Shown piece by piece: positions 997 to 25,865 of a stretch of DNA of 32,931 nucleotides (positions within the stretch are counted from its first letter, which is position 1; the number at the start of each line of letters is the position of its first letter). The translations under genes and the position numbers were made by a program. The stretch covers positions 1 through 32,931 of IMG/VR virus record IMGVR_UViG_2740892235_000010. One strand, written 5' to 3'. Origin of the DNA: a virus. Its lineage: Duplodnaviria; Heunggongvirae; Uroviricota; Caudoviricetes. The notes below the pieces were generated by a model. That model had not been told where the DNA came from. It saw only the letters and a list, made by a program, of their open reading frames with translations, and made no database searches.

Positions 997-1089
997 AAAG
1001 CCCTCCGATGACGCTGTTTACTTCTACTACTTGAAAATTAATGCAATTTTCTTTCGTACATTTACTGCACACATATGCTGAATAAATCG

Positions 1090-1389
1090 TCAGCCAGTCT
1101 TTTGGTCTGAGTGGTGCAAGGTTGTTGAGTCTTGCCCAATGTGTGCGAGCGCCGGGGCTATTTGTCCGGCAGCGGGATCTGTCTCATCAAACATGAACCA
1201 GTCACGATATTTACGGAATCTTGGGTGTTTCAGAAGTCGCACTACCGCGTCATGTGAAATGGATGATTTCCCATTTTCGTACCCCACATAGGTAACGTAA
1301 TTAATACCTGTCATTTCAGCTACTTCCTTCTTCTTGAGGCGTTCAGACTCACGAATAAGTTTAAGTTTCTCACGAATCTCAATTGACAT
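1090..1389 (-). CDS. C: Immunity repressor C-like HTH protein, 99 aa
   Basis: 99-aa ORF, the same size as P2 C, with an HTH-like segment (KKEVAEMTGINYVTYVGYENG). Lies between int and a divergent cox-like gene. Confidence 0.7.
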   Translation of the reverse strand: MSIEIREKLKLIRESERLKKKEVAEMTGINYVTYVGYENGKSSISHDAVVRLLKHPRFRKYRDWFMFDETDPAAGQIAPALAHIGQDSTTLHHSDQKTG

Positions 1390-1493
1390 AATGAATCAGA
1401 TCTCTTATTTTTAATCCGTTGTGATATTCCACACCTAACTCTAGCCAACTCTAACTAGCTTTAGTTTGTGGAGCCAATTAGGAGAATAGCAAA
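1390..1493. promoter_or_regulatory. Divergent early control region (Pc/Pe-type) with tandem direct repeat AACTCTA(G/A)C
   Basis: 104-bp intergenic region between divergent C and cox. Two adjacent 10-bp direct repeats at 1437-1446 and 1447-1456, which is how P2 C operators are arranged (direct repeats). Exact -35/-10 elements not assigned. Confidence 0.45.
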
Positions 1494-1850
1494 ATGAATG
1501 TCGGATCTGAAATTTCTGACGAGACAAGACAAGAAGTCTCAGTTCTTACAAAAGCAAAACGTCATTCAGTTAAATTGGCTGCTGTGCCTTCAGATTTGCT
1601 GTCGAAAGAGGGTTTTGCTCTTTACATAGGTAAGACACCACGCGCTGTAGCAGAAATGGCGAGAGCAGGCAAGCTCCCTGCGTTCTATATGACAGACCCA
1701 CTGAAGCCAGGGGGGAATGCTGAGTTATGGATTAATCGTCGTGAGTGGGACAAATATGCAGCTCAACTAGTCGATGAAGCTCCGACAGAATGGCATGACT
1801 GGAAGAACCGCATAAGTTATAGCAAGTCGAAATTAGGGCGTATGGTGTGA
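1494..1850 (+). CDS. cox: Cox-like excisionase/early regulator, 118 aa
   Basis: ATG at 1494 preceded by AGGAG. First gene of the rightward early operon, divergent from C. HTH-like segment (ALYIGKTPRAVAEMARAGKLPAFYMTDP) resembles Cox/Apl-type proteins. Confidence 0.6.
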   Translation: MNVGSEISDETRQEVSVLTKAKRHSVKLAAVPSDLLSKEGFALYIGKTPRAVAEMARAGKLPAFYMTDPLKPGGNAELWINRREWDKYAAQLVDEAPTEWHDWKNRISYSKSKLGRMV

Positions 1851-1859
1851 GGGCATGTT

Positions 1860-2456
1860 ATGAACACTATAGTAGGAAACACGGCAGCTAAAAAAATTCA
1901 ATCGTTGATCATCGAGCTGCGCACGAGACTTTTGTCGATTGAAGGGCAATCTAACGTATCAGCCATAGTTGATGACATAGAAATTGAAGCGAAAAAATTA
2001 GAAGAAGAAGTTAATTTTCTGGCTTTACCTGTAAGAGCTGCAGAAATTGAGACTTTGACGCATTTAATTAAATGTGGATGTGTCAGGCTGGAAAATAACA
2101 AAAGAGATGAACGTAATGAGATTATAAATAATTTACAAGAGTCATTTGCGTTAATCAGCCAGAATCAACATGCCCCAACTAAAACAAAAAGAAGCAAATC
2201 AAGTAAATTTGAGATTTTGCGTTTTGGTGATCTTTCTATTATTGGTTGCGAGCTAACCCCATTACGCAACTATGTGACTCTATACTGTAGAGCTTGTTAT
2301 GAAAATGACAGATTTATCGGTCATGTGTACTACGGAGTATCAAAGTTATCGGGTGACGAAAAAGGTTATAGCGAATTTGATGCACTGAGTATTATTAATG
2401 CTGTAGAAAAATATGCGCCAGGAATGCAAAAATACTCATGGCGCAAAGTAGATTGA
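1860..2456 (+). CDS. Hypothetical protein, 198 aa (AT-rich early-region cargo)
   Basis: ATG at 1860. Visibly AT-rich relative to the structural genes. No motif recognised. Confidence 0.55.
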   Translation: MNTIVGNTAAKKIQSLIIELRTRLLSIEGQSNVSAIVDDIEIEAKKLEEEVNFLALPVRAAEIETLTHLIKCGCVRLENNKRDERNEIINNLQESFALISQNQHAPTKTKRSKSSKFEILRFGDLSIIGCELTPLRNYVTLYCRACYENDRFIGHVYYGVSKLSGDEKGYSEFDALSIINAVEKYAPGMQKYSWRKVD

Positions 2457-2458
2457 AA

Positions 2459-2713
2459 TTATTTTTCTTTATTCAGCTCTAAGTATTCGCCGATAGTAGC
2501 ATGAAGATTTTTTAATTGCTCGAGTTGAATACTAATTGCAAGAACATTATCGCTTTTTAGGTTTAAGTCGGTATGAAGGTGTGCGAGTAGTCTCATCTTA
2601 CCCTCACTGACAATACCATCGATAGTGATTTTGTCTGGAAATACAGTAACAGTTTTTTTGTCCATTTTTACACCTTTTGTGGTTGGTTGTTTTTGGCGAT
2701 TCGATCTTACCAC
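2459..2713 (-). CDS. Hypothetical small protein, 84 aa (possibly 68 aa from internal Met at 2665)
   Basis: Convergent with the 198-aa ORF, tail-to-tail with a 2-bp gap. AT-rich. No motif recognised. Confidence 0.4.
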   Translation of the reverse strand: MVRSNRQKQPTTKGVKMDKKTVTVFPDKITIDGIVSEGKMRLLAHLHTDLNLKSDNVLAISIQLEQLKNLHATIGEYLELNKEK

Positions 2714-2764
2714 AAGACCATGTGCCGGACATGGCTAAAAACCGGCTCTGTTTCAGGAGGAGTT

Positions 2765-2935
2765 ATGCCGGAACCTCGTTGTATTGCTCAGTTATTGCGT
2801 AACGAAAGCCCAAGGGCGATTGACTTCACCATCACCCACGGTAAGGGGCGTAAGGGAATCATTATCCGCACCAAAAAACAGAGTCCGTTAAAAAAGGCTC
2901 TGACCTTTCTGAAAAGCCGGAGAGTATGGAAATGA
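2765..2935 (+). CDS. Small early protein, about 56 aa
   Basis: ATG at 2765 preceded by GGAGG. Basic protein. Position is analogous to P2 orf78. Confidence 0.4.
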   Translation: MPEPRCIAQLLRNESPRAIDFTITHGKGRKGIIIRTKKQSPLKKALTFLKSRRVWK

Positions 2936-3432
2936 CAGTGATGACGCTCAATCTCGTTGAAAAACAGCCAGCAGCTATGCGCCGGATAATTGGTAAGCAT
3001 CTTGCCGTTCCTCGCTGGCAGGATACATGTGATTATTATAATCAGATGATGGAGCGCGAACGGCTAACAGTTTGCTTTCATGCGCAGTTAAAACAACGTC
3101 ACGCAACGATGCGTTTTGAAGAAATGAACGACGTCGAACGTGAACGGCTGGTTTGTGCAATTGATGAATTGCGTGGGGCATTCTCAAAACGCCGTCAGGT
3201 TGGCGCAAGTGAGTATGCATATATTAGTTTTTTAACAGTAAGTCAGCGTCGCACTTTATTTATGCACGCACGACTGACAGAAAAAGAATTTAACCAGCCG
3301 TACTGGCGAATTAATGAAGAATCATGTTACTGGCGTGATGCTTTATTCCGTGCATTACGTGAATTATTCAGTCTGTTTGAGTATGCACCGACAATTCTGA
3401 CGTCGGTAAAACCAGAGCAATATCTGCATTAA
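2926..3432 (+). CDS. Early protein, 168 aa; candidate P2 B-like replication protein
   Basis: Size and position (between cox and A) match P2 gene B (about 166 aa). No sequence motif confirmed from memory. Confidence 0.5.
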   Translation: MEMTVMTLNLVEKQPAAMRRIIGKHLAVPRWQDTCDYYNQMMERERLTVCFHAQLKQRHATMRFEEMNDVERERLVCAIDELRGAFSKRRQVGASEYAYISFLTVSQRRTLFMHARLTEKEFNQPYWRINEESCYWRDALFRALRELFSLFEYAPTILTSVKPEQYLH

Positions 3433-3495
3433 GTAATTAACCAGAGTTTTTAACGCACTTAATCGTGCGGGGCTTCTTTTTGCCTGGAGAAAGTC

Positions 3496-3708
3496 ATGCA
3501 TACAGTTTCTGAAAATCAGTGCGGTAAATACGCATTAATGCTGCAACAGGCCAGAACCGAAGCACAGGCCGACGCAGCAACGCGCTTTTCGTCTCATCTT
3601 GATGCCATGATTCGCCACATCACAAAGGCGGAGTTATCCCGCGTGGAGATAGTCGAGTTGCTCAGTCAGGAGTCTGCCAAATTCCATAATCTAGGACTCA
3701 ATAAATAA
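3496..3708 (+). CDS. Hypothetical early protein, 70 aa
   Basis: ORF in the early operon between the B-like gene and A. No motif recognised. Confidence 0.45.
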
Positions 3709-3716
3709 CAGGAAAG

Positions 3717-3968
3717 TTGGAGATGACAAATACAAAATGGTTCAGGAAACGCTTAACAGATTATCAACTTTCATTACTTAAAAAATTAGATGACAAGACT
3801 CCACTACATCCATCAAGCGATGTCTTCCGCTCCTGGCCTAGTCGTGTGGAAAAAGCATTTATAGCAATGGGGAAATGGGGGCTTGTGACCAAATCAAGAG
3901 AAGGTTTCTGTATTACCGATAATGGCCGGGAAATGATTGATTCTGCGGAGAGGGCATATAGCGAATGA
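3717..3968 (+). CDS. Hypothetical early protein, 83 aa
   Basis: ORF whose stop overlaps the next gene's start (3965). AT-rich. Confidence 0.5.
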   Translation: MEMTNTKWFRKRLTDYQLSLLKKLDDKTPLHPSSDVFRSWPSRVEKAFIAMGKWGLVTKSREGFCITDNGREMIDSAERAYSE

Positions 3969-4255
3969 AAAATATATTGCTTAATAACTGGCTGAAGATT
4001 TCAGTTATGAAAAATGGTGATTTGTCGCTAGCTGATATTAAACGCGATAAAAACACTGGGGATATGGTTGAATCAACTATAGCCATTTATGCGGATAAAT
4101 TAAATCTCCTGTCTGATGTGGTCAATTTACTTGTTAAACGCGCTGTATTTCATAAGCAAATTTCCTCCGTGGATGAACTGACAAAATTAACGACAGAAGT
4201 CACCAGCTATTGCGCTGATGAATTTAAAAACCTTAACGACAAAAGGAACTGGTAA
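3965..4255 (+). CDS. Hypothetical early protein, 96 aa
   Basis: ORF translationally coupled to its neighbours on both sides. AT-rich. Confidence 0.5.
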   Translation: MKNILLNNWLKISVMKNGDLSLADIKRDKNTGDMVESTIAIYADKLNLLSDVVNLLVKRAVFHKQISSVDELTKLTTEVTSYCADEFKNLNDKRNW

Positions 4256-4479
4256 TGCCGGACAACGTAGATTTTATTCAGGAACAACAGGCTGAATTAC
4301 TGGAGCGCCAGATTAACGCGGCAAGGGTAAAACATTGCGGTGCTTCTGCGCTGGTTTGCGAAGAGTGTGACGCGCCAATACCTGCTGCCCGTCGTGCGGC
4401 TTATCCGTCAGCCACGCGTTGTGTTTCCTGTCAGTCAGTCTTTGAAGCAAAAAACAAACATTACCGGAGAATGGCATGA
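4255..4479 (+). CDS. TraR/DksA-type C4 zinc-finger protein, 74 aa
   Basis: CxxC-17-CxxC motif (CEECDAPIPAARRAAYPSATRCVSC). Position matches P2 orf82. Confidence 0.75.
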   Translation: MPDNVDFIQEQQAELLERQINAARVKHCGASALVCEECDAPIPAARRAAYPSATRCVSCQSVFEAKNKHYRRMA

Positions 4480-4751
4480 GCATTCGTATTGAAATTGGCG
4501 AACGTTATGTCGTTACCAGTGACAGCTTTCAGTTTATTCTCCACGAGAAAAAGAGAGCGGAAAGCGGTAAAAACGCCGGTCAGGAATGGCTGGCGGTGGT
4601 TGGTTATTACCCGAAATTAAGCCAGCTCGTTTCCGGCCTGATGCATCACGATATTCTGACCGGAAGCGCAAAATCTTTTGCCGATTTAAACGCGCAGGTT
4701 GAGCAACTCAGCAAGCGTTGTTCAGAGGCTTTTGGCACACATGGCCGTTAA
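4476..4751 (+). CDS. Hypothetical early protein, 91 aa
   Basis: ORF immediately upstream of and overlapping the A start. Confidence 0.55.
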   Translation: MSIRIEIGERYVVTSDSFQFILHEKKRAESGKNAGQEWLAVVGYYPKLSQLVSGLMHHDILTGSAKSFADLNAQVEQLSKRCSEAFGTHGR

Positions 4752-7011
4752 AGCCTCCGGGCGTTTTGTCCCTTCGTCAGCATTTGCCGCAGGCACCGGT
4801 AAGACGTTTACCGGTGCTTATACATGGAACGCGCCACGTGAGGCTGTCGGGCGCGAAAGACCCCTTACACGTGATGAGATGCGTCAGGTGCAAGGTGTTT
4901 TATCCACGATTAACCGCCTGCCTTACTTTTTGCGCTCGCTGTTTACTTCACGCTATGACTACATCCGGCGCAATAAAAGCCCGGTGCACGGGTTTTATTT
5001 CCTCACATCCACTTTTCAGCGTCGTTTATGGCCGCGCATTGAGCGTGTGAATCAGCGCCATGAAATGAACACCGACGCGTCGTTGCTGTTTCTGGCAGAG
5101 CGTGACCACTATGCGCGCCTGCCTGGAATGAATGACAAGGAGCTGAAAAAGTTTGCTGCCCGTATCTCATCGCAGCTTTTCATGATGTATGAGGAAATCT
5201 GCGATGCCTGGGTGGATGCGCATGGCGAAAAAGAATCGCTGTTTACGGATGAGGCGCAGGCTCACCTGTATGGTCATGTTGCTGGCGCTGCACGTGCTTT
5301 CAATATTTCCCCGCTTTACTGGAAAAAATACCGTAAAGGGCAGATGACCACGAGGCAGGCATATTCTGCCATTGCCCGCCTGTTTAACGATGAGTGGTGG
5401 ACTCATCAGCTTAAAGGCCAGCGTATGCGCTGGCATGAGGCGTTACTGATAGCTGTCGGGGAGGTCAATAAAGACCGTTCTCCTTATGCCAGTAAACACG
5501 CCATTCGTGATGTGCGTGCGCGCCGCCAGGCAAATCTGGAATTTCTTAAATCGTGTGACCTTGAAAACAGGGAAACCGGCGAGCGCATCGACCTTATCAG
5601 TAAGGTGATGGGCAGTATTTCTAATCCTGAAATTCGCCGGATGGAGCTGATGAACACCATTGCCGGTATTGAGCGTTACGCCGCCGCAGAGGGTGATGTG
5701 GGGATGTTTATCACGCTGACCGCGCCGTCAAAGTATCACCCGACACGTCAGGTCGGAAAAGGCGAAAGTAAAACCGTTCAGCTTAATCACGGCTGGAACG
5801 ATGAGGCATTTAATCCAAAGGATGCGCAGCGTTATCTCTGCCGCATCTGGAGCCTGATGCGCACGGCATTCAAGGATAATGATTTACAGGTCTACGGTTT
5901 GCGAGTCGTCGAGCCACACCACGACGGAACGCCGCACTGGCATATGATGCTTTTTTGTAATCCACGCCAGCGTAACCAGATTATCGAAATCATGCGTCGC
6001 TATGCGCTCAAAGAGGATGGCGACGAAAGAGGAGCCGCGCGAAACCGTTTTCAGGCAAAACACCTTAACCGGGGCGGTGCTGCGGGATATATCGCGAAAT
6101 ACATTTCAAAAAATATCGACGGCTATGCACTGGATGGTCAGCTCGATAACGATACCGGCAGACCGCTGAAAGATACTGCAGCGGCTGTTACCGCATGGGC
6201 GTCAACGTGGCGCATTCCGCAATTTAAAACGGTTGGTCTGCCGACAATGGGGGCTTACCGTGAATTACGCAAATTGCCTCGCGGCGTCAGCATTGCTGAT
6301 GAGTTTGACGAGCGCGTCGAGGCTGCACGCGCCGCCGCAGACAGTGGTGATTTTGCGTTGTATATCAGCGCGCAGGGTGGGGCAAATGTTCCGCGCGATT
6401 GTCAGACTGTCAGAGTCGCCCGTAGCCCGTCGGATGAAGTTAACGAGTACGAGGAAGAAGTCGAGAGAGTGGTCGGCATTTACGCGCCGCATCTCGGCGC
6501 GCGTCATATTCATATCACCAGAACGACGGACTGGCGCATTGTGCCGAAAGTTCCAGTCGTGGAGCCTTTGACTTTAAAAAGCGGCATCGCCGCGCCTCGG
6601 AGTCCTGTCAATAACTGTGGAAAGCTCACCGGTAGTGATGTTTCGTTACCGGCTCCCACACCTTCTGAGCACGCCGCCGCAGTGCTTAATCTGGTTGATG
6701 ACGGTGTTATCGAATGGAATGACCAGGAGGTCGTGAGGGCGCTCAGGGGCGCATTAAAACACGACCTGAGAACACCAAACCGTCAGCAAAGAAGCGGAAG
6801 CCCGTTAAAACCGCATGAAATAGCGCCATCGGCCAGACTGACCCGGTCGGAACGAATGCAAATTACCCGTATCCGCGTTGACCTTGCTCAGAACGGTATC
6901 AGGCCGCAGCGATGGGAGCTTGAGGCGCTGGCGCGTGGGGCAACTGTAAATTACGACGGGAGAAGCTTCAGTTATCCTGTTATATGTGATTGGAGAGCGT
7001 ATGAATTATGA
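4741..7011 (+). CDS. A: Replication initiation endonuclease gpA (rolling-circle nickase)
   Basis: 756-aa protein starting MAVKASGRFVPSSAF at ATG 4741 (the ORF track's 4699 start is upstream and in frame). Size and N-terminus match P2 A. Follows the early genes. Confidence 0.9.
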   Translation: MAVKASGRFVPSSAFAAGTGKTFTGAYTWNAPREAVGRERPLTRDEMRQVQGVLSTINRLPYFLRSLFTSRYDYIRRNKSPVHGFYFLTSTFQRRLWPRIERVNQRHEMNTDASLLFLAERDHYARLPGMNDKELKKFAARISSQLFMMYEEICDAWVDAHGEKESLFTDEAQAHLYGHVAGAARAFNISPLYWKKYRKGQMTTRQAYSAIARLFNDEWWTHQLKGQRMRWHEALLIAVGEVNKDRSPYASKHAIRDVRARRQANLEFLKSCDLENRETGERIDLISKVMGSISNPEIRRMELMNTIAGIERYAAAEGDVGMFITLTAPSKYHPTRQVGKGESKTVQLNHGWNDEAFNPKDAQRYLCRIWSLMRTAFKDNDLQVYGLRVVEPHHDGTPHWHMMLFCNPRQRNQIIEIMRRYALKEDGDERGAARNRFQAKHLNRGGAAGYIAKYISKNIDGYALDGQLDNDTGRPLKDTAAAVTAWASTWRIPQFKTVGLPTMGAYRELRKLPRGVSIADEFDERVEAARAAADSGDFALYISAQGGANVPRDCQTVRVARSPSDEVNEYEEEVERVVGIYAPHLGARHIHITRTTDWRIVPKVPVVEPLTLKSGIAAPRSPVNNCGKLTGSDVSLPAPTPSEHAAAVLNLVDDGVIEWNDQEVVRALRGALKHDLRTPNRQQRSGSPLKPHEIAPSARLTRSERMQITRIRVDLAQNGIRPQRWELEALARGATVNYDGRSFSYPVICDWRAYEL

Positions 7012-7104
7012 GATTGTGATAAAAAGTAAATAATTAATATAATGCAATTGCTTGACTGTTTTAAAAGGGACAACGTAGTTGTGAACTATATTGTCCCGGG
7101 AGTA

Positions 7105-8160
7105 TTAATTTTTAAATATGGATTGTATGTATTCTATAGTGCTATCTTTAGCTCTGATGTCTTTTAAAGTGTTATTTATGAAATCTATTATTCTGTCATT
7201 ACTTAATAGTGGCGATAACGCATAACATGTTGTTGTGAATGTCATGACGTCACTAAAGCTTAGTGAAACACCTTTTGTCGCAGCGTTCTCAATCGCAAGA
7301 GACTCATCAATATCTAAGTTTGTTGCTCTTGGCCCTTTAAGGAAGATAACTTTTGAAATCCCGGATGCAGATGCTTTTGAAACGGCGTGATTAACATCTT
7401 GATAATTAAATGGTTTGTCTTTCACTTCTATAGAAAGGAAAACTATATCATCATGATATACATCTATGTCCAGTATCTCTTTTGAGGAGCTACCGGCCTG
7501 ATTGACGGGATGTGCTTTTATTATCCATCCTCTTTGTTCACCTAATAAATGTAACGAAATTGCGGCAGCAATCGCGCATGTTTCTCCATCACAAGGATGA
7601 GATATAATATTATAAATAATCTTATGGAAATCAAAATTAATTGAGTTCGGCGTTATAACTCTATTGGTTCGCTGTAGGGTAAAATATAATGCAATAACAA
7701 GCATTTCATAAGCTAAGGTTTGGGTTGTTGCTGCATGTAATATATCAATTGAAAGTTGTTGTAAAACCTTATCATTTCCTCTGCGCACAGGGTTATCAGA
7801 GGAGTGGAGCATGTAACGAGCTGGTTTATTTAGAAATGGCTCATTTGATGCGCCTAACTTACCCTCTAAAAATGGGCCTTCTACTTTGCCTACTATTACC
7901 GAATGACATAAACTTCTTGCATCATAGGCTCCGTCTACGGGGGCATTAGCTTGTAAAGCCAGAGGGTTTACTCTAGGGTCTGTTGCTTTTGCAAGTAAAC
8001 CAGTAATAAGTATATATCTGTATGTAAGGTGGGTGCCTAAAATTACATTTTGAATGGAGACCCATTGATTATTTGTTTTGTAATCAGTTAATTTTTTTGC
8101 ATCGTTGATTGCATTTATAATTACATTATAGGCTTGCTCATGATTTACTAATACTTTCAT
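7105..8160 (-). CDS. Candidate type II restriction endonuclease, 351 aa (family not assignable from memory)
   Basis: ATG at 8158-8160. Its start is overlapped by 23 nt by the upstream HTH controller gene. Divergent from a C5-MTase. Possible PD-(D/E)xK-like segment DIDVYHDDIVFLSIEVK. AT-rich. Confidence 0.5.
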   Translation of the reverse strand: MKVLVNHEQAYNVIINAINDAKKLTDYKTNNQWVSIQNVILGTHLTYRYILITGLLAKATDPRVNPLALQANAPVDGAYDARSLCHSVIVGKVEGPFLEGKLGASNEPFLNKPARYMLHSSDNPVRRGNDKVLQQLSIDILHAATTQTLAYEMLVIALYFTLQRTNRVITPNSINFDFHKIIYNIISHPCDGETCAIAAAISLHLLGEQRGWIIKAHPVNQAGSSSKEILDIDVYHDDIVFLSIEVKDKPFNYQDVNHAVSKASASGISKVIFLKGPRATNLDIDESLAIENAATKGVSLSFSDVMTFTTTCYALSPLLSNDRIIDFINNTLKDIRAKDSTIEYIQSIFKN

Positions 8161-8407
8161 AGGTGTCCTTTAGTAAGATATCCATTGGTAGACCTAATCG
8201 GCTTGCAACCACCTCTAATAATTCAAATAGTTCTAAAGCATCTAATCGCCTTTCAAAGCTTTCGATTTTAGATATATCTGATTGTGATAATCCTAGAAAA
8301 ATGGCCAATTCTGACTGCGAAAGAGAAGCTTCTTTGCGTAGTTTGGTGAGAAGCTGGACTAGGCACCTGTATCTATGATCATGTATAGTTGGTTGTCGTT
8401 TTGCCAT
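8138..8407 (-). CDS. Controller (C-protein)-like XRE-family HTH regulator, about 89 aa
   Basis: HTH segment LSQSELAIFLGLSQSDISKIE. Immediately upstream of and overlapping the 351-aa gene. Start taken at ATG 8405-8407; an alternative ATG at 8450-8452 would overlap the MTase start. Confidence 0.6.
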   Translation of the reverse strand: MAKRQPTIHDHRYRCLVQLLTKLRKEASLSQSELAIFLGLSQSDISKIESFERRLDALELFELLEVVASRLGLPMDILLKDTYESISKS

Positions 8408-8490
8408 GTGGTTTAGAAGGTGATTGATTGTGTGTCGATCCTTACCTATCATTGGTTTTATTCCAAAATCGAATAATTGGTGCTAAAGAA
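8408..8490. promoter_or_regulatory. Divergent promoter/operator region of the R-M-like module (candidate C-box location)
   Basis: Short region between the divergent controller and MTase genes. Operator position inferred from C-protein systems; no convincing palindrome assigned. Confidence 0.3.
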
Positions 8491-9582
8491 GTGAACAAAA
8501 TTTCAGCGGTGAGCTTATTTACTGGGGCAGGAGGGATGGATGTCGGTTTCTCTAATGCCGGGTTCCGAACAGTTTGGGCCAATGATATAGATAAGGATGC
8601 ATGTGATACATTTAAGCTTAATCATGAATCACCTGTTTTTTGTGGTGATATTGATGAGATGCTAAGTGAATTGTCTGGGCTGAAAAATATAGGTTGTGTT
8701 TTTGGTGGGCCTCCATGCCAAGGATTTTCTGTGGCAGGGAAAATGGACGCTCATGATCCACGTAGTAAGCTGGTTATGTCATTCATGCGGGCGGTGGATA
8801 TAATTCAACCAGAATGCTTTGTTATGGAGAATGTTAAGGCTTTAGCACAGTTGTCCAAATTTGAACCAGTTAGGTGTGAACTGTTTAAGATGGCTGAAAA
8901 GTCAGGCTATCGTTCAGCCTTGCTGGTGCTGAATTCTAAAGATTTTGGCGTTCCTCAGAATAGGGAACGTATGTTTTTTATAGGGTTTCGTTCCGAAAAT
9001 GATGTGAAACGAGTTGAGGCGGCGATAAAAAAATACCAATATCTTTCGCCAACAGTTGGTGAGATTATTCGGCCTTTAGGGCGAGCGGGTAATCCAAACA
9101 ATTCAAGAGTCTGTAATGCAAGGATTACAAATGCTGCTAAGCCAGTATTACGGAAGTCACCTTACGCGGGAATGATGTTTAACGGGCAGGGAAGACCAAT
9201 TAACCCGAATGGGTATGCTTCAACTATAGCTGCTTCTATGGGGGGGAATAGGACACCAATTATTGATGAAGAACACCTTTATGATGGCTCAACAAGTTAT
9301 GTTGAGACTTATCATAATCATCTAATGAATGGTGGTGAGCCAAAAGATATGCACGATGTACCTAGTCGTTTACGTCGACTAACGATAGATGAGGCTCTTT
9401 TGATTCAAACATTCCCGAGTAATTATGTCTTTGTGGGGAAAAATTCGTCAATTTGGCGTCAGATAGGGAATGCTGTGCCTTGTAAATTGGCGCAGGCTGT
9501 TGCTGCAGGGGTTTTGGATGTCCTTACTGGTAAAACTATTAATGTTCAAAAGAGTCAAACAGAGTTGAGTTTGAATTCGTAA
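8428..9582 (+). CDS. DNA (cytosine-5)-methyltransferase
   Basis: Motif I FTGAGGMDVGF, motif IV GGPPCQGFS, motif VI FVMENV, motif VIII QNRERMFFIGF, motif X RQIGNAVP. Start is TTG at 8428 preceded by AGGTGA; alternative GTG at 8491. Confidence 0.9.
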   Translation: MCVDPYLSLVLFQNRIIGAKEVNKISAVSLFTGAGGMDVGFSNAGFRTVWANDIDKDACDTFKLNHESPVFCGDIDEMLSELSGLKNIGCVFGGPPCQGFSVAGKMDAHDPRSKLVMSFMRAVDIIQPECFVMENVKALAQLSKFEPVRCELFKMAEKSGYRSALLVLNSKDFGVPQNRERMFFIGFRSENDVKRVEAAIKKYQYLSPTVGEIIRPLGRAGNPNNSRVCNARITNAAKPVLRKSPYAGMMFNGQGRPINPNGYASTIAASMGGNRTPIIDEEHLYDGSTSYVETYHNHLMNGGEPKDMHDVPSRLRRLTIDEALLIQTFPSNYVFVGKNSSIWRQIGNAVPCKLAQAVAAGVLDVLTGKTINVQKSQTELSLNS

Positions 9583-9738
9583 AACGGATCACATTTTCAA
9601 ACCGATGGATGCAGAATTTAACATTGCTGCATGAGTTTGCATCTTGAAATCATAAGCTGTACTGCTTGGCTTGACCAGAATTGATGTGGGTAAGAAGTGG
9701 TTATGCACCCGCATTAAAACCGCCCCATTAAGCGGGCG

Positions 9739-9757
9739 GGCGAGGCGGGGAAAGCAC
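9739..9757. other. cos cohesive-end sequence (GGCGAGGCGGGGAAAGCAC) of P2-type phages
   Basis: Exact 19-nt string recalled as the P2 cohesive end. Lies in the GC-rich non-coding stretch between the cargo and Q, where P2 cos is located. Confidence 0.6.
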
Positions 9758-9899
9758 TGCGCGCTGGCGGTGGTGCTGATTTTATTTTTTCAGCGTCTGA
9801 GCGCGTCGTGGCGGCGTTTAGATTTTGCGCCGGGGCGTTGCTGTGTCTGCGGGCTGTTTTGTGCGGTGGTGAGCGTGTGAGGGCGTGATGACTGGGTGT

Positions 9900-9921
9900 A
9901 AAAAAGCCGCCCGCAGGCGGC
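9900..9921 (-). terminator. Rho-independent terminator downstream of Q (end of the Q-P operon)
   Basis: Stem GCCGCC/GGCGGC (9906-9911 / 9916-9921) with a 4-nt loop, followed on the minus strand by T6 (complement of A 9900-9905). 5 nt after the Q stop. Confidence 0.6.
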
Positions 9922-9926
9922 GATGT

Positions 9927-10961
9927 TCAGCCGTTGTCAGTGTCCAGTGAGTAGTTTTTAAAGCGGATGACCTCCTGACCGAGCCAGCCGTTTATCTCGC
10001 GGATCCTGTCCTGTAACGGGATAAGCTCATTGCGGACAAAGACCTTTGCCACTTTCTCAATATCACCCAGCGACCCGACGTTCTCCGGCTTGCCGCCCAT
10101 CAACTGAAAGGGGATGCGGTGCGCGTCCAGCAGGTCAGCGGCGCTGGCTTTTTTGATATTAAAAAAATCGTCCTTCGTTGCCACTTCACTGAGCGGGATA
10201 ATTTTAATGCCGTCGGCTTTTCCCTGCGGGGCATAGAGAAACAGATTTTTAAAGTTGTTGCGGCCTTTCGACTTGACCATGTTTTCGCGAAGCATTTCGA
10301 TATCGTTGCGATCCTGCACGGCATCAGTGACGTACATGATGTATCCGGCATGTGCGCCGTTTTCGTAATACTTGCGGCGGAACAGCGTGGCTGACTCATT
10401 CAGCCAGGCAGAGTTAAGGGCGCTGAGATATTCCGGCATGCCGTACAGCTCCTGATTAATATCCGGCTCCAGCAGATGAAACACGGAGCCGGGCGCGAAA
10501 GGTGTCGGCTCGTTGAAGGACGGCACCCACCAGTAAACATCCTCCTCCACGCCACGGCGGGTATATTTTGCCGGTGAGGTTTCCAGTCTGATGACCTTAC
10601 CGGTGGTGCTGTAACGCTTTTCCAGAAACGCATTACCGAACACCAGAAAATCCAGCGCAAAGCGGCTGAAATCCTGCTGGGAAAGCCACGGATGCGGGAT
10701 AAATGTCGAGGCCAGAATATTGCGTTTGACGTAAATCGGGGAGCTGTGATGCACGGCAGCACGCAGGCTTTTTGCCAGACCGGTAAAGCTGACCGGTGGC
10801 TCATACCATCTGCCGTTACTGATGCACTCGACGTAATCCAGAATGTCACGGCGGTCGAGTACCGGCACCGGTTCACCAAAGGTGAATGCCTCCATTTTCG
10901 GGGCGCTGGCGGTCATTTTTTTTGCCGCAGGTTGCGGTGTTTTCCCTTTTTTCTTGCTCAT
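9927..10961 (-). CDS. Q: Capsid portal protein gpQ
   Basis: 344-aa ORF, same size as P2 Q, and the sequence agrees with what I recall of P2 Q. Operon with P, divergent from O. Confidence 0.9.
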   Translation of the reverse strand: MSKKKGKTPQPAAKKMTASAPKMEAFTFGEPVPVLDRRDILDYVECISNGRWYEPPVSFTGLAKSLRAAVHHSSPIYVKRNILASTFIPHPWLSQQDFSRFALDFLVFGNAFLEKRYSTTGKVIRLETSPAKYTRRGVEEDVYWWVPSFNEPTPFAPGSVFHLLEPDINQELYGMPEYLSALNSAWLNESATLFRRKYYENGAHAGYIMYVTDAVQDRNDIEMLRENMVKSKGRNNFKNLFLYAPQGKADGIKIIPLSEVATKDDFFNIKKASAADLLDAHRIPFQLMGGKPENVGSLGDIEKVAKVFVRNELIPLQDRIREINGWLGQEVIRFKNYSLDTDNG

Positions 10962-12733
10962 CAGTAAAACTCCAGAATGGTGGATGTCAGCGGTGTGCTG
11001 ATACCGGCGGTGAGTGGCTCATTTAACAGGGCGTGCATGGTCGCCCATGCGAGGTCGGCGTGGCTGGCTTCCTCGCTGCGGCTGGCCTCATAGGTGGCGC
11101 TGCGTCCGCTGCTGGTCATGGTCTTGCGGATAGCCATAAACGAGCTGGTGATGTCGGTGGCGCTGACGTCATATTCCAGACAGCCACGACGGATAACGTC
11201 TTTTGCCTTGAGCACCATTGCGGTTTTCATTTCCGGCGTGTAGCGGATATCGCGCGCGGCGGGATAGAACGAGCGCACGAGCTGGAACACGCCGACACCG
11301 AGGCCGGTGGCATCAATACCGATGTATTCGACGTTATATTTTTCGGTGAGTTTGCGGATGGATTCCGCCTGGGTGGCAAAGTCCATACCTTTCCACTGGT
11401 GACGCTCAAGTATTCTGAATTTGCCACCGGCCACCACCGGCGGTGCCAGTACCACGCATCCGGCGCTGTCGCCACGGTGTGACGGGTCGTAACCAATCCA
11501 TACCGGTCGGGAGCCGAACGGATTTGCGGCAAACGGCGCATAGTCTTCCCATTCTTCCAGCGTGTCGACCATGCAGCGTTGCAGCTCCTCGAACGGGAAT
11601 ACCGATGCCTTGTCATCAACAAATTCACACATGAACAGGTTTTTAAAATCGTCGGCGCTGTTTTCGCGTTTAAGCTGCTCAATGTCGAACAATGTGCAGC
11701 CACCTTTCAGGGCGTCCTCAATGGTGACAATCTGCCGCCACTGGCCGTCCGCACAGAGAAGCCCACTGGCAAGGGCGTTATGACTGACGTCGATTTCCAC
11801 GCGTTCGGCGGCGCTGGCGCGTCCCCGGTTGAACAGTTCACCTGACCAGAACGGGTAGGCGTCGTGCGCCAGCGTGGACGGGGTGGAGAAATAGGTCGAG
11901 CGCAGGTGACTCTGTGAGGCCATACCTGATGCCACCTTACGCAGTACCTGAAAATTCGGGATCCAGAAAATCTCGTCGACGTACAGGTCGCCGTTATGGC
12001 TCTGTGCGGTGTTGGAGTTGGTGCCGAGAAAAATCAGTTTTGCGCCGTTATTGCCCAGGACAATCGGGTCACCGGTCAGGTCAACGTCAACCAGACGGGC
12101 AAAGGCGATGATGTATTCGCGGAACACATACGCCTGCGTTTTACTGGCCGACAGAAAAATCTGGTTATGACCGGTTTTCAGGGCGCGCAGCAGCGCCTCG
12201 CGGGAAAAATAAAACGTCGCGCCAATCTGGCGGGATTTCAGGATATCGCGGATGCGGTGCTCAAGCCCGGCGCGATACCAGTGCAACTGATATTCGAAAG
12301 ACTGCTCAAAGAAAATCTGCTCCAGCTTTTCGATGGCCTCGTCACTGAAAAAATTCTTTTTCGGTTTGCGACGCCCGCCTTTGTTGCGGTTAGCGATGTT
12401 CGGATTAAGGTCTGCCTCGTTGCCGGTCTGGCTGTAGCGGTTTACCCGTGCCAGTCGTTCAATCTGGCGTCCGAGCAGGTCAATTTCCTTGAAGTCACCG
12501 CCGGTTTTCTGCGGTTTGATGATGAGCTGGGTCAGCCGCGCTTCCAGACTCATTTCGACACGGCTGATGGGGGCAACACTGTCCCAGCCGTCGCGCTGTT
12601 TCCAGCTCTGCACCGTCGGGCGTTTCATCTGCAACATGGCGGCAATCTGCGGCACGGAAAACCCCTGCCAGTACAGCAGCGCCGCCTGACGACGCGGGTC
12701 GTGTAAAAGAGTGGTGTCTGTGGTGATGGTCAT
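10961..12733 (-). CDS. P: Terminase large (ATPase) subunit gpP
   Basis: Starts MTITTDTTLLHDPRRQAALLYWQGF at ATG 12731-12733 (the ORF-track start at 12763 is upstream). About 590 aa, as in P2 P. Confidence 0.9.
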   Translation of the reverse strand: MTITTDTTLLHDPRRQAALLYWQGFSVPQIAAMLQMKRPTVQSWKQRDGWDSVAPISRVEMSLEARLTQLIIKPQKTGGDFKEIDLLGRQIERLARVNRYSQTGNEADLNPNIANRNKGGRRKPKKNFFSDEAIEKLEQIFFEQSFEYQLHWYRAGLEHRIRDILKSRQIGATFYFSREALLRALKTGHNQIFLSASKTQAYVFREYIIAFARLVDVDLTGDPIVLGNNGAKLIFLGTNSNTAQSHNGDLYVDEIFWIPNFQVLRKVASGMASQSHLRSTYFSTPSTLAHDAYPFWSGELFNRGRASAAERVEIDVSHNALASGLLCADGQWRQIVTIEDALKGGCTLFDIEQLKRENSADDFKNLFMCEFVDDKASVFPFEELQRCMVDTLEEWEDYAPFAANPFGSRPVWIGYDPSHRGDSAGCVVLAPPVVAGGKFRILERHQWKGMDFATQAESIRKLTEKYNVEYIGIDATGLGVGVFQLVRSFYPAARDIRYTPEMKTAMVLKAKDVIRRGCLEYDVSATDITSSFMAIRKTMTSSGRSATYEASRSEEASHADLAWATMHALLNEPLTAGISTPLTSTILEFY

Positions 12734-12906
12734 GAATACCTCGCCGTGATGAATACACGGCAAGGCTACTGAGTCGCGCCCTGCGATTCGCTAAGGTGCT
12801 GTTGTGTCAGTGATAAGCCATCCGGGACTGATGGCGGAGGATGCGCATCGTCGGGAAACTGATGCCGACATGTGACTCCTCTAATCACTATTCAGGACTC
12901 CTGACA
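12734..12906. promoter_or_regulatory. Divergent late promoter region (P_P / P_O)
   Basis: Intergenic region between divergent P and O. Inferred from P2 organisation. TGT/ACA-like elements are present but no clean TGT-N12-ACA dyad was assigned. Confidence 0.35.
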
Positions 12907-13761
12907 ATGGCAAAAAAAGCATCAAAATTCTTTCGTATCGGCGTTGAGGGTGACACCTGTGACGGGCGTGTCATCAGTGCGCAGGATATTCAGGAAATGG
13001 CTGAAACCTTTGACCCGCGTGTCTACGGTTGCCGCATTAACCTGGAACATCTGCGCGGCATCCTGCCTGACGGTATTTTTAAGCGTTATGGCGATGTGGT
13101 CGAACTGAAGGCCGAAAAGATTGATGACGATTCGGCGCTGAAAGGCAAATGGGCGCTGTTTGCGAAAATCACCCCGACCGATGACCTTATCGCGATGAAC
13201 AAGGCCGCGCAGAAGGTCTATACCTCAATGGAAATTCAGCCGAACTTTGCCAACACCGGCAAATGTTATCTGGTGGGGCTGGCCGTCACCGATGACCCGG
13301 CAAGCCTCGGCACGGAATACCTGGAATTCTGCCGCACGGCAAAACACAACCCTCTGAACCGCTTCAAATTAAGCCCTGAAAACCTGATTTCAGTGGCAAC
13401 GCCCGTTGAGCTGGAATTTGAAGACCTGCCTGAAACCGTGTTCACCGCCCTGACCGAAAAGGTGAAATCCATTTTTGGCCGCAAACAGGCCAGCGATGAC
13501 GCCCGTCTGAATGACGTGCATGAAGCGGTGACCGCTGTTGCTGAACATGTGCAGGAAAAACTGAGCGCCACTGAGCAGCGCCTCGCAGAGATGGAAACCG
13601 CCTTTTCCGCACTTAAGCAGGAGGTGACTGACAGGACGGATGAAACCAGCCAGGCATTCACCCGCCTGAAAAACAGTCTCGACCACACCGAAAGTCTGAC
13701 CCAGCAGCGCCGCAGCAAGGCCACCGGTGGTGGCGGTGACGCCCTGATGACGAACTGCTGA
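12907..13761 (+). CDS. O: Capsid scaffolding protein gpO
   Basis: Starts MAKKASKFFRIGVEGDTCDGR at ATG 12907. 284 aa, as in P2 O. Confidence 0.9.
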   Translation: MAKKASKFFRIGVEGDTCDGRVISAQDIQEMAETFDPRVYGCRINLEHLRGILPDGIFKRYGDVVELKAEKIDDDSALKGKWALFAKITPTDDLIAMNKAAQKVYTSMEIQPNFANTGKCYLVGLAVTDDPASLGTEYLEFCRTAKHNPLNRFKLSPENLISVATPVELEFEDLPETVFTALTEKVKSIFGRKQASDDARLNDVHEAVTAVAEHVQEKLSATEQRLAEMETAFSALKQEVTDRTDETSQAFTRLKNSLDHTESLTQQRRSKATGGGGDALMTNC

Positions 13762-13819
13762 CCGGCGTCAGTCAGTCCGGGAAAACCTTCACGATTAACC
13801 CTTAATTTCAGGAATAACT

Positions 13820-14893
13820 ATGCGCCAGGAAACCCGCTTTAAATTTAATGCCTACCTGTCCCGTGTTGCCGAACTGAACGGCATCGACGCCGGTGATGTG
13901 TCGAAAAAATTCACCGTTGAACCGTCGGTCACCCAGACCCTGATGAACACCATGCAGGAGTCCTCTGATTTTCTGACCCGCATCAACATTGTGCCGGTCA
14001 GCGAAATGAAAGGGGAAAAAATTGGTATTGGTGTCACCGGCTCCATCGCCAGCACCAGCGACACCGCCGGTGGCACCGAGCGTCAGCCGAAGGACTTCTC
14101 GAAGCTGGCGTCAAACAAGTACGAATGCGACCAGATTAACTTCGATTTTTATATCCGCTACAAAACGCTTGACCTGTGGGCGCGTTATCAGGATTTCCAG
14201 CTCCGTGTCCGTAACGCCATTATCAAACGCCAGTCCCTTGATTTAATCATGGCCGGTTTTAACGGCGTGAGGCGTGCCGAAACCTCTGACCGCAGCAGTA
14301 ATCCGATGCTGCAGGATGTGGCGGTCGGCTGGCTGCAGAAATACCGCAATGAAGCCCCGGCGCGTGTGATGAGCAAGGTCACTGACGAGGAAGGGCACAC
14401 CACCTCTGAGGTTATCCGCGTGGGTAAGGGCGGTGATTATGCCAGCCTTGACGCACTGGTGATGGATGCGACCAACAACCTGATTGAACCGTGGTATCAG
14501 GAAGACCCTGACCTTGTGGTGATTGTGGGGCGTCAGCTACTGGCGGACAAGTATTTCCCCATCGTTAACAAGGAGCAGGACAACAGCGAAATGCTGGCCG
14601 CTGACGTCATCATCAGCCAGAAACGCATCGGTAACCTGCCAGCGGTACGCGTCCCGTACTTCCCGGCGGATGCGATGCTCATCACGAAGCTGGAAAACCT
14701 GTCCATCTACTACATGGATGACAGCCATCGCCGCGTGATTGAGGAAAACCCGAAACTCGACCGCGTGGAGAACTACGAGTCAATGAACATTGATTACGTG
14801 GTGGAAGACTACGCCGCCGGTTGTCTGGTGGAAAAAATTAAGGTCGGTGATTTCTCCACACCGGCTAAGGCGACCGCAGAGCCGGGAGCGTAA
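13820..14893 (+). CDS. N: Major capsid protein gpN
   Basis: 357 aa, as in P2 N. Follows O. Confidence 0.92.
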   Translation: MRQETRFKFNAYLSRVAELNGIDAGDVSKKFTVEPSVTQTLMNTMQESSDFLTRINIVPVSEMKGEKIGIGVTGSIASTSDTAGGTERQPKDFSKLASNKYECDQINFDFYIRYKTLDLWARYQDFQLRVRNAIIKRQSLDLIMAGFNGVRRAETSDRSSNPMLQDVAVGWLQKYRNEAPARVMSKVTDEEGHTTSEVIRVGKGGDYASLDALVMDATNNLIEPWYQEDPDLVVIVGRQLLADKYFPIVNKEQDNSEMLAADVIISQKRIGNLPAVRVPYFPADAMLITKLENLSIYYMDDSHRRVIEENPKLDRVENYESMNIDYVVEDYAAGCLVEKIKVGDFSTPAKATAEPGA

Positions 14894-14896
14894 CCG

Positions 14897-15640
14897 ATGA
14901 CGAGTCCCGCACAGCGCCACATGATGCGGGTCTCGGCAGCGATGACCGCGCAGCGGGAAGCCGCCCCGCTGCGACATGCAACTGTCTATGAGCAGATGCT
15001 GGTTAAGCTCGCCGCAGACCAGCGCACACTGAAAGCGATTTATTCAAAAGAGCTGAAGGCCGCGAAAAAACGCGAACTGCTGCCGTTCTGGTTGCCGTGG
15101 GTGAACGGCGTTCTGGAGCAGGGCAAAGGTGCACAGGATGACATTCTGATGACGGTCATGCTGTGGCGTCTGGATACCGGCGATATTGCCGGTGCGCTGG
15201 AGATTGCCCGTTATGCCCTGAAGTACGGTCTGACCATGCCGGGTAAACACCGCCGCACCCCGCCGTACATGTTCACCGAGGAAGTGGCACTCGCGGCCAT
15301 GCGCGCTCACGCTGCCGGTGAGTCTGTGGATACCCGCCTGCTGACGGAGACCCTTGAACTGACCGCCGCTGCTGACATGCCTGATGAAGTGCGCGCAAAG
15401 CTGCACAAAATCACCGGTCTGTTTCTGCGTGACGCTGGTGATGCCGCAGGGGCGCTGGCGCACCTGCAACGTGCGACACAGCTCGACTGTCAGGCAGGCG
15501 TCAAAAAAGAGATTGAACGACTGGAGCGGGAGCTGAAACCGAAGCCGGAGCCGCAGCCAAAAGCGGCCACCCGTACCCCGCGTAAGACCCGGAGCGTGAC
15601 ACCGGCAAAACGTGGACGCCCGAAAAAGAAAGCCAGTTAA
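14897..15640 (+). CDS. M: Terminase small (endonuclease) subunit gpM
   Basis: 247 aa. Position and size match P2 M. Basic C-terminal tail. Confidence 0.85.
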   Translation: MTSPAQRHMMRVSAAMTAQREAAPLRHATVYEQMLVKLAADQRTLKAIYSKELKAAKKRELLPFWLPWVNGVLEQGKGAQDDILMTVMLWRLDTGDIAGALEIARYALKYGLTMPGKHRRTPPYMFTEEVALAAMRAHAAGESVDTRLLTETLELTAAADMPDEVRAKLHKITGLFLRDAGDAAGALAHLQRATQLDCQAGVKKEIERLERELKPKPEPQPKAATRTPRKTRSVTPAKRGRPKKKAS

Positions 15641-15739
15641 CAACCGAATGCGCCCCGCGCCAGGGCGGCACGCCGGTCAGTGAGGGTGAATCACCTGACA
15701 CTGCACCGGCGTCCACCGCCCGACTTTTCAGAGGTAGTC

Positions 15740-16249
15740 ATGATGACGCTGATTATTCCGCGAAAGGAGGCTCCCGTGTCCGGTGAGGGTACGGTGGTCA
15801 TCCCGCAACCGGCAGGCGACGAGCCGGTGATTAAAAACACGTTCTTTTTTCCCGATATCGACCCGAAGCGCGTCCGGGAACGTATGCGCCTTGAGCAGAC
15901 CGTCGCCCCCGCCCGTCTGCGTGAGGCCATCAAGTCAGGCATGGCGGAGACGAATGCGGAGCTGTACGAGTACCGCGAACAGAAAATTGCCGCCGGTTTT
16001 ACGCGTCTGGCGGACGTCCCGGCGGACGACATCGACGGTGAAAGCATCAAAGTTTTTTACTACGAGCGCGCCGTGTGTGCGATGGCGACCGCATCACTTT
16101 ATGAGCGTTATCGCGGCGTGGATGCCAGTGCGAAAGGCGACAAGAAGGCCGACAGCATTGACAGCACCATTGATGAGCTGTGGCGGGATATGCGCTGGGC
16201 GGTGGCGCGTATCCAGGACAAGCCGCGCTGCATCGTGAGTCAAATCTGA
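15740..16249 (+). CDS. L: Head completion/stabilisation protein gpL
   Basis: Starts at the tandem ATG 15740/15743 preceded by GAGG (ORF-track start 15680 is upstream). About 169 aa, as in P2 L. Confidence 0.8.
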   Translation: MMTLIIPRKEAPVSGEGTVVIPQPAGDEPVIKNTFFFPDIDPKRVRERMRLEQTVAPARLREAIKSGMAETNAELYEYREQKIAAGFTRLADVPADDIDGESIKVFYYERAVCAMATASLYERYRGVDASAKGDKKADSIDSTIDELWRDMRWAVARIQDKPRCIVSQI

Positions 16250-16452
16250 TGAAGACCTTTGCGCTACAGGGCGACACGCTCGACGCCATTTGTGTCCGGT
16301 ATTACGGGCGCACTGAGGGCGTGGTTGAGACCGTGCTCGCCGCAAATCCGGGACTGGCTGAACTGGGTGCGGTGCTGCCGCACGGCACCGCCGTCGAACT
16401 GCCCGACGTTCAGACCGCGCCCGTGGCTGAAACTGTCAATCTGTGGGAGTAA
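16249..16452 (+). CDS. X: Tail protein gpX, 67 aa
   Basis: ATG at 16249 overlapping the L stop. 67 aa, as in P2 X. Confidence 0.75.
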   Translation: MKTFALQGDTLDAICVRYYGRTEGVVETVLAANPGLAELGAVLPHGTAVELPDVQTAPVAETVNLWE

Positions 16453-16455
16453 CGC

Positions 16456-17234: not shown

Positions 17235-17248
17235 ACGGAGTAAACACC

Positions 17249-19107: not shown

Positions 19108-19108
19108 T

Positions 19109-25286: not shown

Positions 25287-25295
25287 GGGGACAAC

Positions 25296-25811: not shown

Positions 25812-25865
25812 TGTATCTGAACGGCGCGGGATACCGCGCCAGAACCCAATTTACAGGACAGCAAA

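Follow-up and report, generated by a model that had tools for sequence, protein, structure and literature searches.

Gene content of the locus

The window, by which we mean the whole 32,931-nucleotide stretch of DNA analysed, covers a P2-like prophage. Between the replication gene A and the cos site lies a block of approximately 2.7 kb, made up of a gene for a small helix-turn-helix (HTH) protein, C, which overlaps a restriction endonuclease gene, R, and a divergent gene for a C5-cytosine (m5C) methyltransferase, M. The features are as follows.

4741..7011, plus strand: P2 replication gene A, the left conserved flank (Pfam Phage_GPA, E = 3.4e-124; 95-97% DNA identity to P2 gene A)
6981..9710, no strand: variable AT-rich cargo block in the cos-proximal P2 gpA-gpQ hotspot
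7105..8160, minus strand: ecoT38IR, R.EcoT38I restriction endonuclease, 351 aa, SacI family, with a PD-(D/E)xK catalytic domain
8138..8407, minus strand: ecoT38IC, controller (C) protein, XRE-type HTH, 89 aa (Pfam HTH_3)
8424..8452, plus strand: putative M promoter, TTGATT-17-TATCAT, a promoter-like scan match
8438..8466, minus strand: putative weak activator-dependent C/R promoter, with a -35 TTGGAA (8466-8461) in the C-box, a 17-nt spacer and a -10-like AAGGAT (8443-8438)
8458..8476, no strand: predicted C-box operator, an inverted repeat reading TTATTC-GATTTTG-GAATAA on the C-sense strand
8491..9582, plus strand: ecoT38IM, m5C DNA methyltransferase, 363 aa from the most likely start, GTG 8491
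9739..9757, plus strand: cos (cohesive end site), from the P2 alignment
9927..10961, minus strand: portal gene Q, the right conserved flank (ORF; RefSeq 'phage portal protein' at the identical locus; 97.6% identity to P2)

The start of gene A was set by the 2271-nt length of the RefSeq CDS at the identical locus. In a DNA alignment to the window, homology to P2 and PhiR44_1 ends at 6964-6980 and restarts at 9698-9711, and GC content is 0.33-0.42 over positions 7000-9600 compared with 0.52-0.57 in the flanks. P2 positions 1-9369 correspond to window positions 9739-19109. The position of cos is confirmed, since P2 base 1 (cosL) aligns to 9739 and P2 cosR to 9711-9757. The flanks are approximately 97% identical to those of P2-like phages, and the cargo differs between them: at the same site other P2-like phages carry tin/old, Fic/VbhT, ParaMORC3 with Dcm, CDT or a retron RT. 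The gpA-gpQ interval is a documented cargo hotspot, and validated anti-phage systems are its main occupants (Rousset 2022). An earlier note on this DNA had described an AT-rich block between the gene A stop at 7011 and cos, in an interval that it took for a hotspot of variable cargo; the GC profile and the P2 alignment bear out the first point and the different cargo of other P2-like phages the second. The ORF positions that it gave for the end of gene A, the 351-aa ORF, the HTH ORF and a 384-aa methyltransferase ORF were all reproduced.

The prophage is located at ssrA and is identical to a prophage of E. coli strain 10. Judged by ORF size it has a full-length P2-type gene complement, and its int/immunity region and tail module are diverged. 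RefSeq annotates the block in 20 of 5,426 complete E. coli genomes, and no record with this block was found in the INPHARED phage collection. The identical cargo is also present on a different P2-like backbone, beside pflA. That it occurs on at least two different P2-like backbones, and at different integration sites, is consistent with an exchange of cassettes at the hotspot.

The restriction endonuclease

The 351-aa protein had been flagged as a probable restriction endonuclease that could be placed in no family. It is identical at 351 of 351 residues to PDB 7E8R and 7EDB, which are described as 'EcoT38I restriction endonuclease (complexed with DNA)', and it matches Pfam RE_SacI (PF09566) far above threshold (E = 1.9e-76; 258 bits, with a cut-off of 19.3; aligned over profile positions 4-276 of 276). 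PADLOC REase_II matches it with 834 bits, RefSeq labels the gene as SacI-family, and no NCBIfam family was matched. The protein is therefore a restriction endonuclease, as had been supposed, and the 'unplaceable nuclease' is R.EcoT38I. The value of this result is mostly one of correct annotation.

Our search found 1,419 SacI-family homologues. In 32 homologues, with identities down to 38%, residues D231, D233, E245 and K247 are invariant. The earlier note had suggested a DIDVY...IEVK motif, and this corresponds to D231/D233...E245-x-K247, the PD-(D/E)xK nuclease motif, whose catalytic role in R is a prediction from the sequence. The catalytic domain has the PD-(D/E)xK fold, with a restriction-endonuclease-like alpha/beta core. 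Two of the checks proposed for this protein, on a nuclease fold and on conserved catalytic residues, came out in favour of a nuclease.

The methyltransferase and the controller protein

The divergent ORF had been called a C5-cytosine methyltransferase, and this is supported by matches to Pfam DNA_methylase (PF00145; 225.7 bits, cut-off 22) and TIGR00675 dcm (200 bits) and by the catalytic GPPCQGFS and ENV motifs in its translation. The longest version of this ORF has 384 aa (8428-9582, plus strand, TTG start at 8428), and RefSeq makes the same call. Read instead from GTG 8491, M is identical at 362 of 363 residues to UniProt Q83VT0 (363 aa, taxon Peduovirus P2), the sole difference being a start codon read as V and not M. 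Because Q83VT0 has the short form and homologues begin at the same point, GTG 8491 is most likely the true start, giving a 363-aa protein, and RefSeq has probably placed it 21 codons too far upstream. We rejected the 384-aa form, which would cross the operator and the opposing promoter and is longer than the UniProt and homologue forms. With a start at 8491 the gap between R and M is 330 nt. A figure of 330 nt is said to appear in the original description of EcoT38I, which reportedly also assigns C a dual regulatory role.

The rare codons listed for EcoT38I in PMC6456624 Table 3 are an AUA at codon 15 of R and GGG at codons 12 and 15 of M. This fingerprint fits both genes here, and fits M only with the 8491 start. 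For M the agreement is partial, as the M gene here also has a GGA (codon 14) and a GGG (codon 24) that the table does not list, and we regard it as supportive, not decisive. Taken with its taxon and length, the fingerprint suggests that Q83VT0 is the deposit of Kita 2003.

The C gene encodes a protein with an HTH_3 score of 28.3 bits and a weak match to the PADLOC Control_protein models (E = 2e-4). Residues 6-89 are identical (84 of 84) to PDB 2EF8, an E. coli entry named only 'Putative transcription factor', and we infer that 2EF8 is C.EcoT38I. A literature search found no publication on structures 7E8R, 7EDB or 2EF8. The longest possible C ORF has 104 aa, from ATG 8452; like the 384-aa form of M it would cross the operator and the opposing promoter, and it was rejected in favour of the shorter form seen in homologues and in the PDB. 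The last 23 nt of the C gene overlap the start of R. In 25 SacI-family loci a C-like gene takes the corresponding place, with the C to R order and a divergent M. The ORF layout, the overlap and these loci together uphold the proposal of a C-R operon with a divergent M gene, the layout of controller-type type II restriction-modification (R-M) systems.

Co-conservation of the endonuclease and the methyltransferase

An orthologous methyltransferase (48-78% identity, full length) adjoins R in 71 of 80 SacI-family loci from many phyla, and starts at the short form. In most of the other nine loci R lies at a contig edge. This bears on a second reading, offered in the earlier note, in which the HTH gene and the 351-aa protein would be a defence module of their own (or, in a variant of it, a toxin module) beside an orphan phage methylase with no relation to them. 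Orphan Dcm-type phage methylases do occur in the hotspot, for example the Dcm of PhiR44_1 beside ParaMORC3. The adjacency in 71 of 80 loci contradicts this reading, as do the crystallisation of R as a DNA-bound restriction endonuclease and the operator shared between the C/R and M genes, and we consider it effectively refuted, with scarcely any probability left to it.

The block is almost certainly the EcoT38I type II R-M system, which a P2-like prophage carries as cargo in its cos-proximal A-Q hotspot, and nothing that we observed speaks against this identification. The finding is already known, in that the EcoT38I system was published years ago, with its cloning, characterisation and crystallisation, and the hotspot is well documented. 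The published system reportedly lies between A and Q, with R and M head-to-head and C overlapping R.

Specificity and depletion of recognition sites

SacI recognises GAGCTC and EcoT38I, reportedly, the relaxed sequence GRGCYC. The original abstract and REBASE are said to give the EcoT38I site as GRGCY^C, with the inner cytosine reportedly methylated; our literature search found no paper tying EcoT38I to GRGCYC. As Pfam names the family after SacI, one might ask whether the system here has a specificity other than the published one, such as strict GAGCTC, and the earlier note had likewise raised an uncharacterised specificity. The 100% identity of R to the PDB EcoT38I chain and the match of M to Q83VT0 imply the same specificity as EcoT38I, and they leave a different one hardly credible.

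We also considered whether avoidance of GRGCYC could serve as evidence of specificity. In the window GRGCYC occurs twice against an expectation of 28.7 +/- 4.7. The counts are 0 against 26 expected in P2, 2 against 27 in pro483 and 1 against approximately 27 in this prophage. Many palindromic hexamers occur just 0-1 times, and the depletion is as strong in P2 and pro483, neither of which has the cargo, so that it tells nothing about specificity. P2-like phages as a lineage avoid GRGCYC, whether they bear the cargo or not.

C-controlled type II R-M systems can act as selfish addiction modules. The system could thus be EcoT38I and yet be selected mainly for post-segregational killing that stabilises the prophage, and not for anti-phage defence. 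The near-absence of GRGCYC sites from P2-like relatives speaks for this, as EcoT38I would then be unable to exclude its closest competitors. The two roles are compatible, however, the hotspot holds mainly validated anti-phage systems, and palindrome avoidance is general in P2-like phages rather than GRGCYC-specific. We regard addiction as the main selected role as unlikely. In the system as proposed here M.EcoT38I, a monomeric-type C5-cytosine methyltransferase, would shield host and prophage DNA while R.EcoT38I would cut incoming unmodified DNA.

Operator and a possible mode of regulation

The earlier note had proposed a search for a C-box palindrome in homologous loci, and such a conserved element was found. 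Upstream of C in approximately 20 of 22 related loci, which span several phyla, lies the sequence ATAT[G/T]C-GATTTTG-G[C/A]ATAT. The element in the window is a 19-bp palindrome with 6-bp inverted arms and a 7-bp spacer, and is the single match in the window, where 0.09 would be expected by chance. The asymmetric GATTTTG spacer is invariant from enterobacteria to cyanobacteria. The comparative definition of this operator is a minor addition of the present work.

The putative C/R promoter was deduced from aligned upstream regions, in which TTGGCA, 17 nt and TCAAAT/CAAGAT recur, and it scores under the promoter-scan threshold. On the other strand, the predicted M transcript start lies near 8459, inside the left arm of the predicted C-box. 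These positions suggest the following order of events. A dimer of C would bind the single palindromic operator at 8458-8476, between the divergent promoters. Bound C would activate transcription of its own gene, because the -35-like TTGGAA of the weak C/R promoter lies within the operator, and the 23-nt overlap between the two genes would cause R to be expressed along with C. As the operator spans the predicted M transcript start, bound C would at the same time turn M down. It would follow that in a newly entered cell M is made first, and R only once C has accumulated. The binding of C to the operator, the two promoters as placed here and the sequence in which the genes are expressed are offered as a model drawn from the arrangement of the locus.

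One may speculate further that the P2-like phage which carries this copy at ssrA is intact and inducible, making it a live vehicle of R-M genes between strains, and that its C-box represents a biochemically uncharacterised class acting as a one-site bidirectional switch. We think it rather doubtful that both hold together.

Comparison with known systems

The closest known system is EcoT38I of E. coli TH38. The layout reported for that system is shared with the locus described here: the A-Q location in a P2-type prophage, the head-to-head arrangement of R and M and the overlap of C with R. At the protein level R is identical to 7E8R/7EDB, M to Q83VT0 and C to 2EF8, which links R and M, and probably C, to the TH38 system (Kita, Kawakami and Tanaka 2003). 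To judge from its title, that paper (Kita et al. 2003, J Bacteriol 185:2296) concerns an EcoT38I R-M system transferred by P2 phage. The published hosts are, again going by the title, defective P2 prophages, whereas the prophage here has a full-length gene complement and lies at ssrA. The SacI family is similar in its full-length HMM match and in an m5C methyltransferase usually paired with R; a C gene is found in about a third of its loci, and EcoT38I is among those that have one.

PvuII, BamHI, AhdI, Esp1396I and EcoO109I likewise have a small XRE HTH gene upstream of and overlapping R, a divergent M and, between C and M, a palindromic operator. Systems of the PvuII type have a double operator of 35 bp with GTG at its centre (Sorokin 2009). 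In contrast, the operator here is one palindrome of 19 bp whose asymmetric GATTTTG spacer does not vary, and it more resembles the EcoRV and EcoO109I classes, which likewise have a single palindrome.

With P2 tin/old and other gpA-gpQ cargo the block shares the cos-adjacent site, the AT-richness and a similar size (2.7 kb here, mean 3.2 kb), and differs in content, where a type II R-M system takes the place of Old/Tin, retrons, Fic and others (Rousset et al. 2022). The EcoO109I R-M system of P4-like satellites (Kita et al. 1999) is also a C-controlled type II system at a cos-adjacent hotspot of the P2/P4 system, but it belongs to another enzyme family, has another specificity and is carried by the satellite rather than by the helper phage.

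Organization of the cargo block

The AT-rich block that follows the P2 replication gene A holds three genes, R, C and M, listed here after gene A itself:

ORF ending at 7011, gene A (stop at 7011)
7105-8160, minus strand, 351-aa ORF (R)
8138-8407, minus strand, XRE-type HTH ORF (C); the longest possible ORF reaches 8452
8428-9582, divergent, 384-aa ORF (M)

The ORFs, the 23-nt overlap between the end of C and the start of R, the AT-richness of the block and cos were all recovered as the earlier note had described them. GC content is 0.33-0.42 across 7000-9600 vs 0.52-0.57 in the flanks. The position of cos, 9739-9757, is confirmed by the alignment of P2 base 1 to 9739. Pfam DNA_methylase (225.7 bits) and TIGR00675 (200 bits) both match the 384-aa ORF.

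The nuclease is R.EcoT38I

The 351-aa protein had been considered a nuclease of unknown specificity that fits no family. This does not hold, as R matches the Pfam family PF09566 RE_SacI (E = 1.9e-76, 258 bits; cut-off 19.3 bits) and is identical at 351/351 residues to the "EcoT38I restriction endonuclease" of PDB entries 7E8R/7EDB, which are structures of the enzyme alone and DNA-bound. A PADLOC type II REase model also matches R from end to end (834 bits), and RefSeq already carries the label "restriction endonuclease, SacI family". The nuclease is R.EcoT38I, which is published, listed in REBASE and crystallised. The whole block is present at at least 99.7% identity in 20 of 5,426 complete E. 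coli genomes in RefSeq. The guess that DIDVY...IEVK is a PD-(D/E)xK-like motif fared better: it is the conserved core, because D231, D233, E245 and K247 are invariant in an alignment of 32 homologues reaching down to 38% identity. E193, H217, N220, E228, D248 and K249 are likewise invariant in this alignment.

Residues 6-89 of C are identical (84/84) to PDB 2EF8, an E. coli entry titled "putative transcription factor". Read from a GTG at 8491, M is identical at 362 of 363 residues to UniProt Q83VT0 (363 aa, filed under Peduovirus P2), the start residue being the sole difference, and the gap between R and M is then exactly 330 nt. An independent fingerprint is available in the REBASE data of PMC6456624 Table 3, where R.EcoT38I has AUA as codon 15 and M.EcoT38I has GGG as codons 12 and 15. 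Codon 15 of R in the window is AUA, and the GGG codons of M fit the table only from the 8491 start; the match for M is partial, because GGA at codon 14 and GGG at codon 24 are not listed there. The RefSeq CDS for M starts at a TTG at 8428 (384 aa). Neither the homologues nor Q83VT0 have its 21-codon extension (8428-8490), which spans the predicted M promoter and the predicted C-box. The more likely start is GTG 8491.

A 2003 description of EcoT38I by Kita et al. reportedly has R and M head-to-head and 330 nt apart, with the C gene in the gap and overlapping R, and the system is said to lie between P2 A and Q, the portal gene. C is reportedly an activator of R and a repressor of M, and the recognition site is said to be G(A/G)GC(C/T)C. 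As far as these points can be checked in sequence, the window fits all of them.

A single restriction-modification system

The earlier note read the block as a C-controlled restriction-modification system, with the alternative that the HTH and 351-aa genes form a separate defence module beside an orphan methyltransferase. We compared 80 SacI-family loci from genomes of Proteobacteria, Cyanobacteria, Firmicutes, Bacteroidetes, Planctomycetes and Archaea. In 71 of them the gene directly beside R encodes an orthologous m5C methyltransferase (48-78% identity over the full length), and in the other nine R is mostly at a contig edge. The window-like layout, with a C-like HTH gene directly upstream of R and M divergent, is found in 25 of the 80 loci. 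These results refute an orphan methyltransferase beside a separate defence module; the restriction-modification reading was right.

The closest relative outside E. coli, in Enterobacteriaceae bacterium UBA7338 (L004:2076-4976), has the same layout, with identities of 82% for C, 65% for R and 78% for M. Just past the end of R there is a fragment resembling gpA (60% over 80 aa), so the link of this restriction-modification lineage to the P2 A-side hotspot may reach beyond E. coli.

Hotspot, cassette exchange and prophage context

Homology to P2 and PhiR44_1 ends at 6964-6980 and restarts at 9698-9711. The flanks share about 97% identity with many P2-like phages, which carry other cargo at the same position, including tin/old, Fic/VbhT, ParaMORC3 with Dcm, DUF4238, cytolethal distending toxin and a retron RT. 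The proposal that the block occupies a variable hotspot was therefore right. According to Rousset et al. (2022), gpA-gpQ is a hotspot whose 18,150 occurrences show 1,650 arrangements. No record with the EcoT38I block was found in the phage collection searched. Identical cargo is found in E. coli strain 64, in a prophage beside pflA with a different early region, and the early region of the window occurs at at least 99% in only one genome. The EcoT38I cassette is thus common to different P2-like backbones.

The window has an identical counterpart in E. coli strain 10 (NZ_CP146507.1), spanning the origin of that record. Judged by ORF size, all P2 structural genes are apparently present. Features outside the cargo block are:

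1860-2456, plus strand, 198-aa ORF
2459-2713, minus strand, 84-aa ORF, convergent with the 198-aa ORF
31872-32234, minus strand, tmRNA gene ssrA (tag ANDENYALAA)
32449-32931, smpB

The final ~1 kb (31872-32931) is host DNA with ssrA and smpB, which indicates a P2-like prophage integrated at ssrA. The backbone is mosaic: identity to P2 is 95-98% in the head, lysis and baseplate genes and only 66-71% in the tail sheath-to-D module (24123-30270) and the int/repressor region (1-1200). The region 1860-2713, directly after cox, is AT-rich (GC ~0.35), and its two ORFs have no Pfam or PHROG match; the strain 64 prophage is ~890 nt shorter in the early region. A second small site of variable cargo may lie here. 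At 31265-31748, two neighbouring ORFs on the minus strand (62 and 91 aa) match, respectively, the C-terminal and N-terminal halves of the 167-position PHROG 2561 ('DNA ligase'); this gene, located between ogr and the attachment site, seems to be split or frameshifted.

In four complete E. coli genomes in RefSeq (NZ_CP146507.1, NZ_AP027697.1, NZ_CP062876.1 and NZ_CP075640.1) the cargo lies exactly at 2272-5000. These chromosome records therefore begin at base 1 of P2 gene A (2271 nt), probably an assembly-rotation artefact in which the phage replication gene was mistaken for a replicon start gene.

Avoidance of GRGCYC sites

The window holds two GRGCYC sites against 28.7 +/- 4.7 expected; just one of them is within the prophage, where about 27 are expected. 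This depletion is uninformative about the cargo, because cargo-free P2 (0 vs 26 expected) and pro483 (2 vs 27 expected) are equally depleted and many palindromic hexamers, for example GAGCTC, GGCGCC, CCGCGG and GGTACC, are at 0-1 copies. We therefore reject it as a signal of EcoT38I; palindrome avoidance is a lineage-wide trait of P2-like genomes with or without this system.

Predicted operator and promoters

The earlier note proposed seeking a C-box palindrome upstream of the controller gene in homologous loci. A candidate lies upstream of the C genes in about 20 of the 22 loci that were aligned. The element, ATAT[G/T]C-GATTTTG-G[C/A]ATAT, has 6-bp inverted arms and an almost invariant, asymmetric 7-bp spacer. 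Its copy in the window is:

8458-8476, predicted operator, TTATTC-GATTTTG-GAATAA

This copy is a perfect 6/6 palindrome, both arms being altered symmetrically relative to the common form, and is the sole match in the window (chance expectation 0.09). Within the conserved element lies TTGGCA, which is TTGGAA in the window; 17 nt further on comes TCAAAT or CAAGAT, with AAGGAT (8443-8438) as the window form. We read TTGGAA-17-AAGGAT as a putative weak, activator-dependent C/R promoter with its -35 within the predicted operator. The opposite strand has a promoter-like TTGATT-17-TATCAT at 8424-8452, from which an M transcript would start at ~8459, inside the predicted operator. In the loci from cyanobacteria, the predicted operator lies immediately next to the start codon of M. 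Since the operator would hold both the C/R -35 and the M transcript start, bound C would switch C/R on and M down. Such a switch would be the delayed-restriction scheme that is standard for C-controlled restriction-modification systems, and it would agree with the roles of C reported in 2003.

Sorokin et al. include C.EcoT38I in their list of systems for which a site is predicted. The PvuII type of Sorokin et al. has a 35-bp double box, from which the predicted operator of the window differs.
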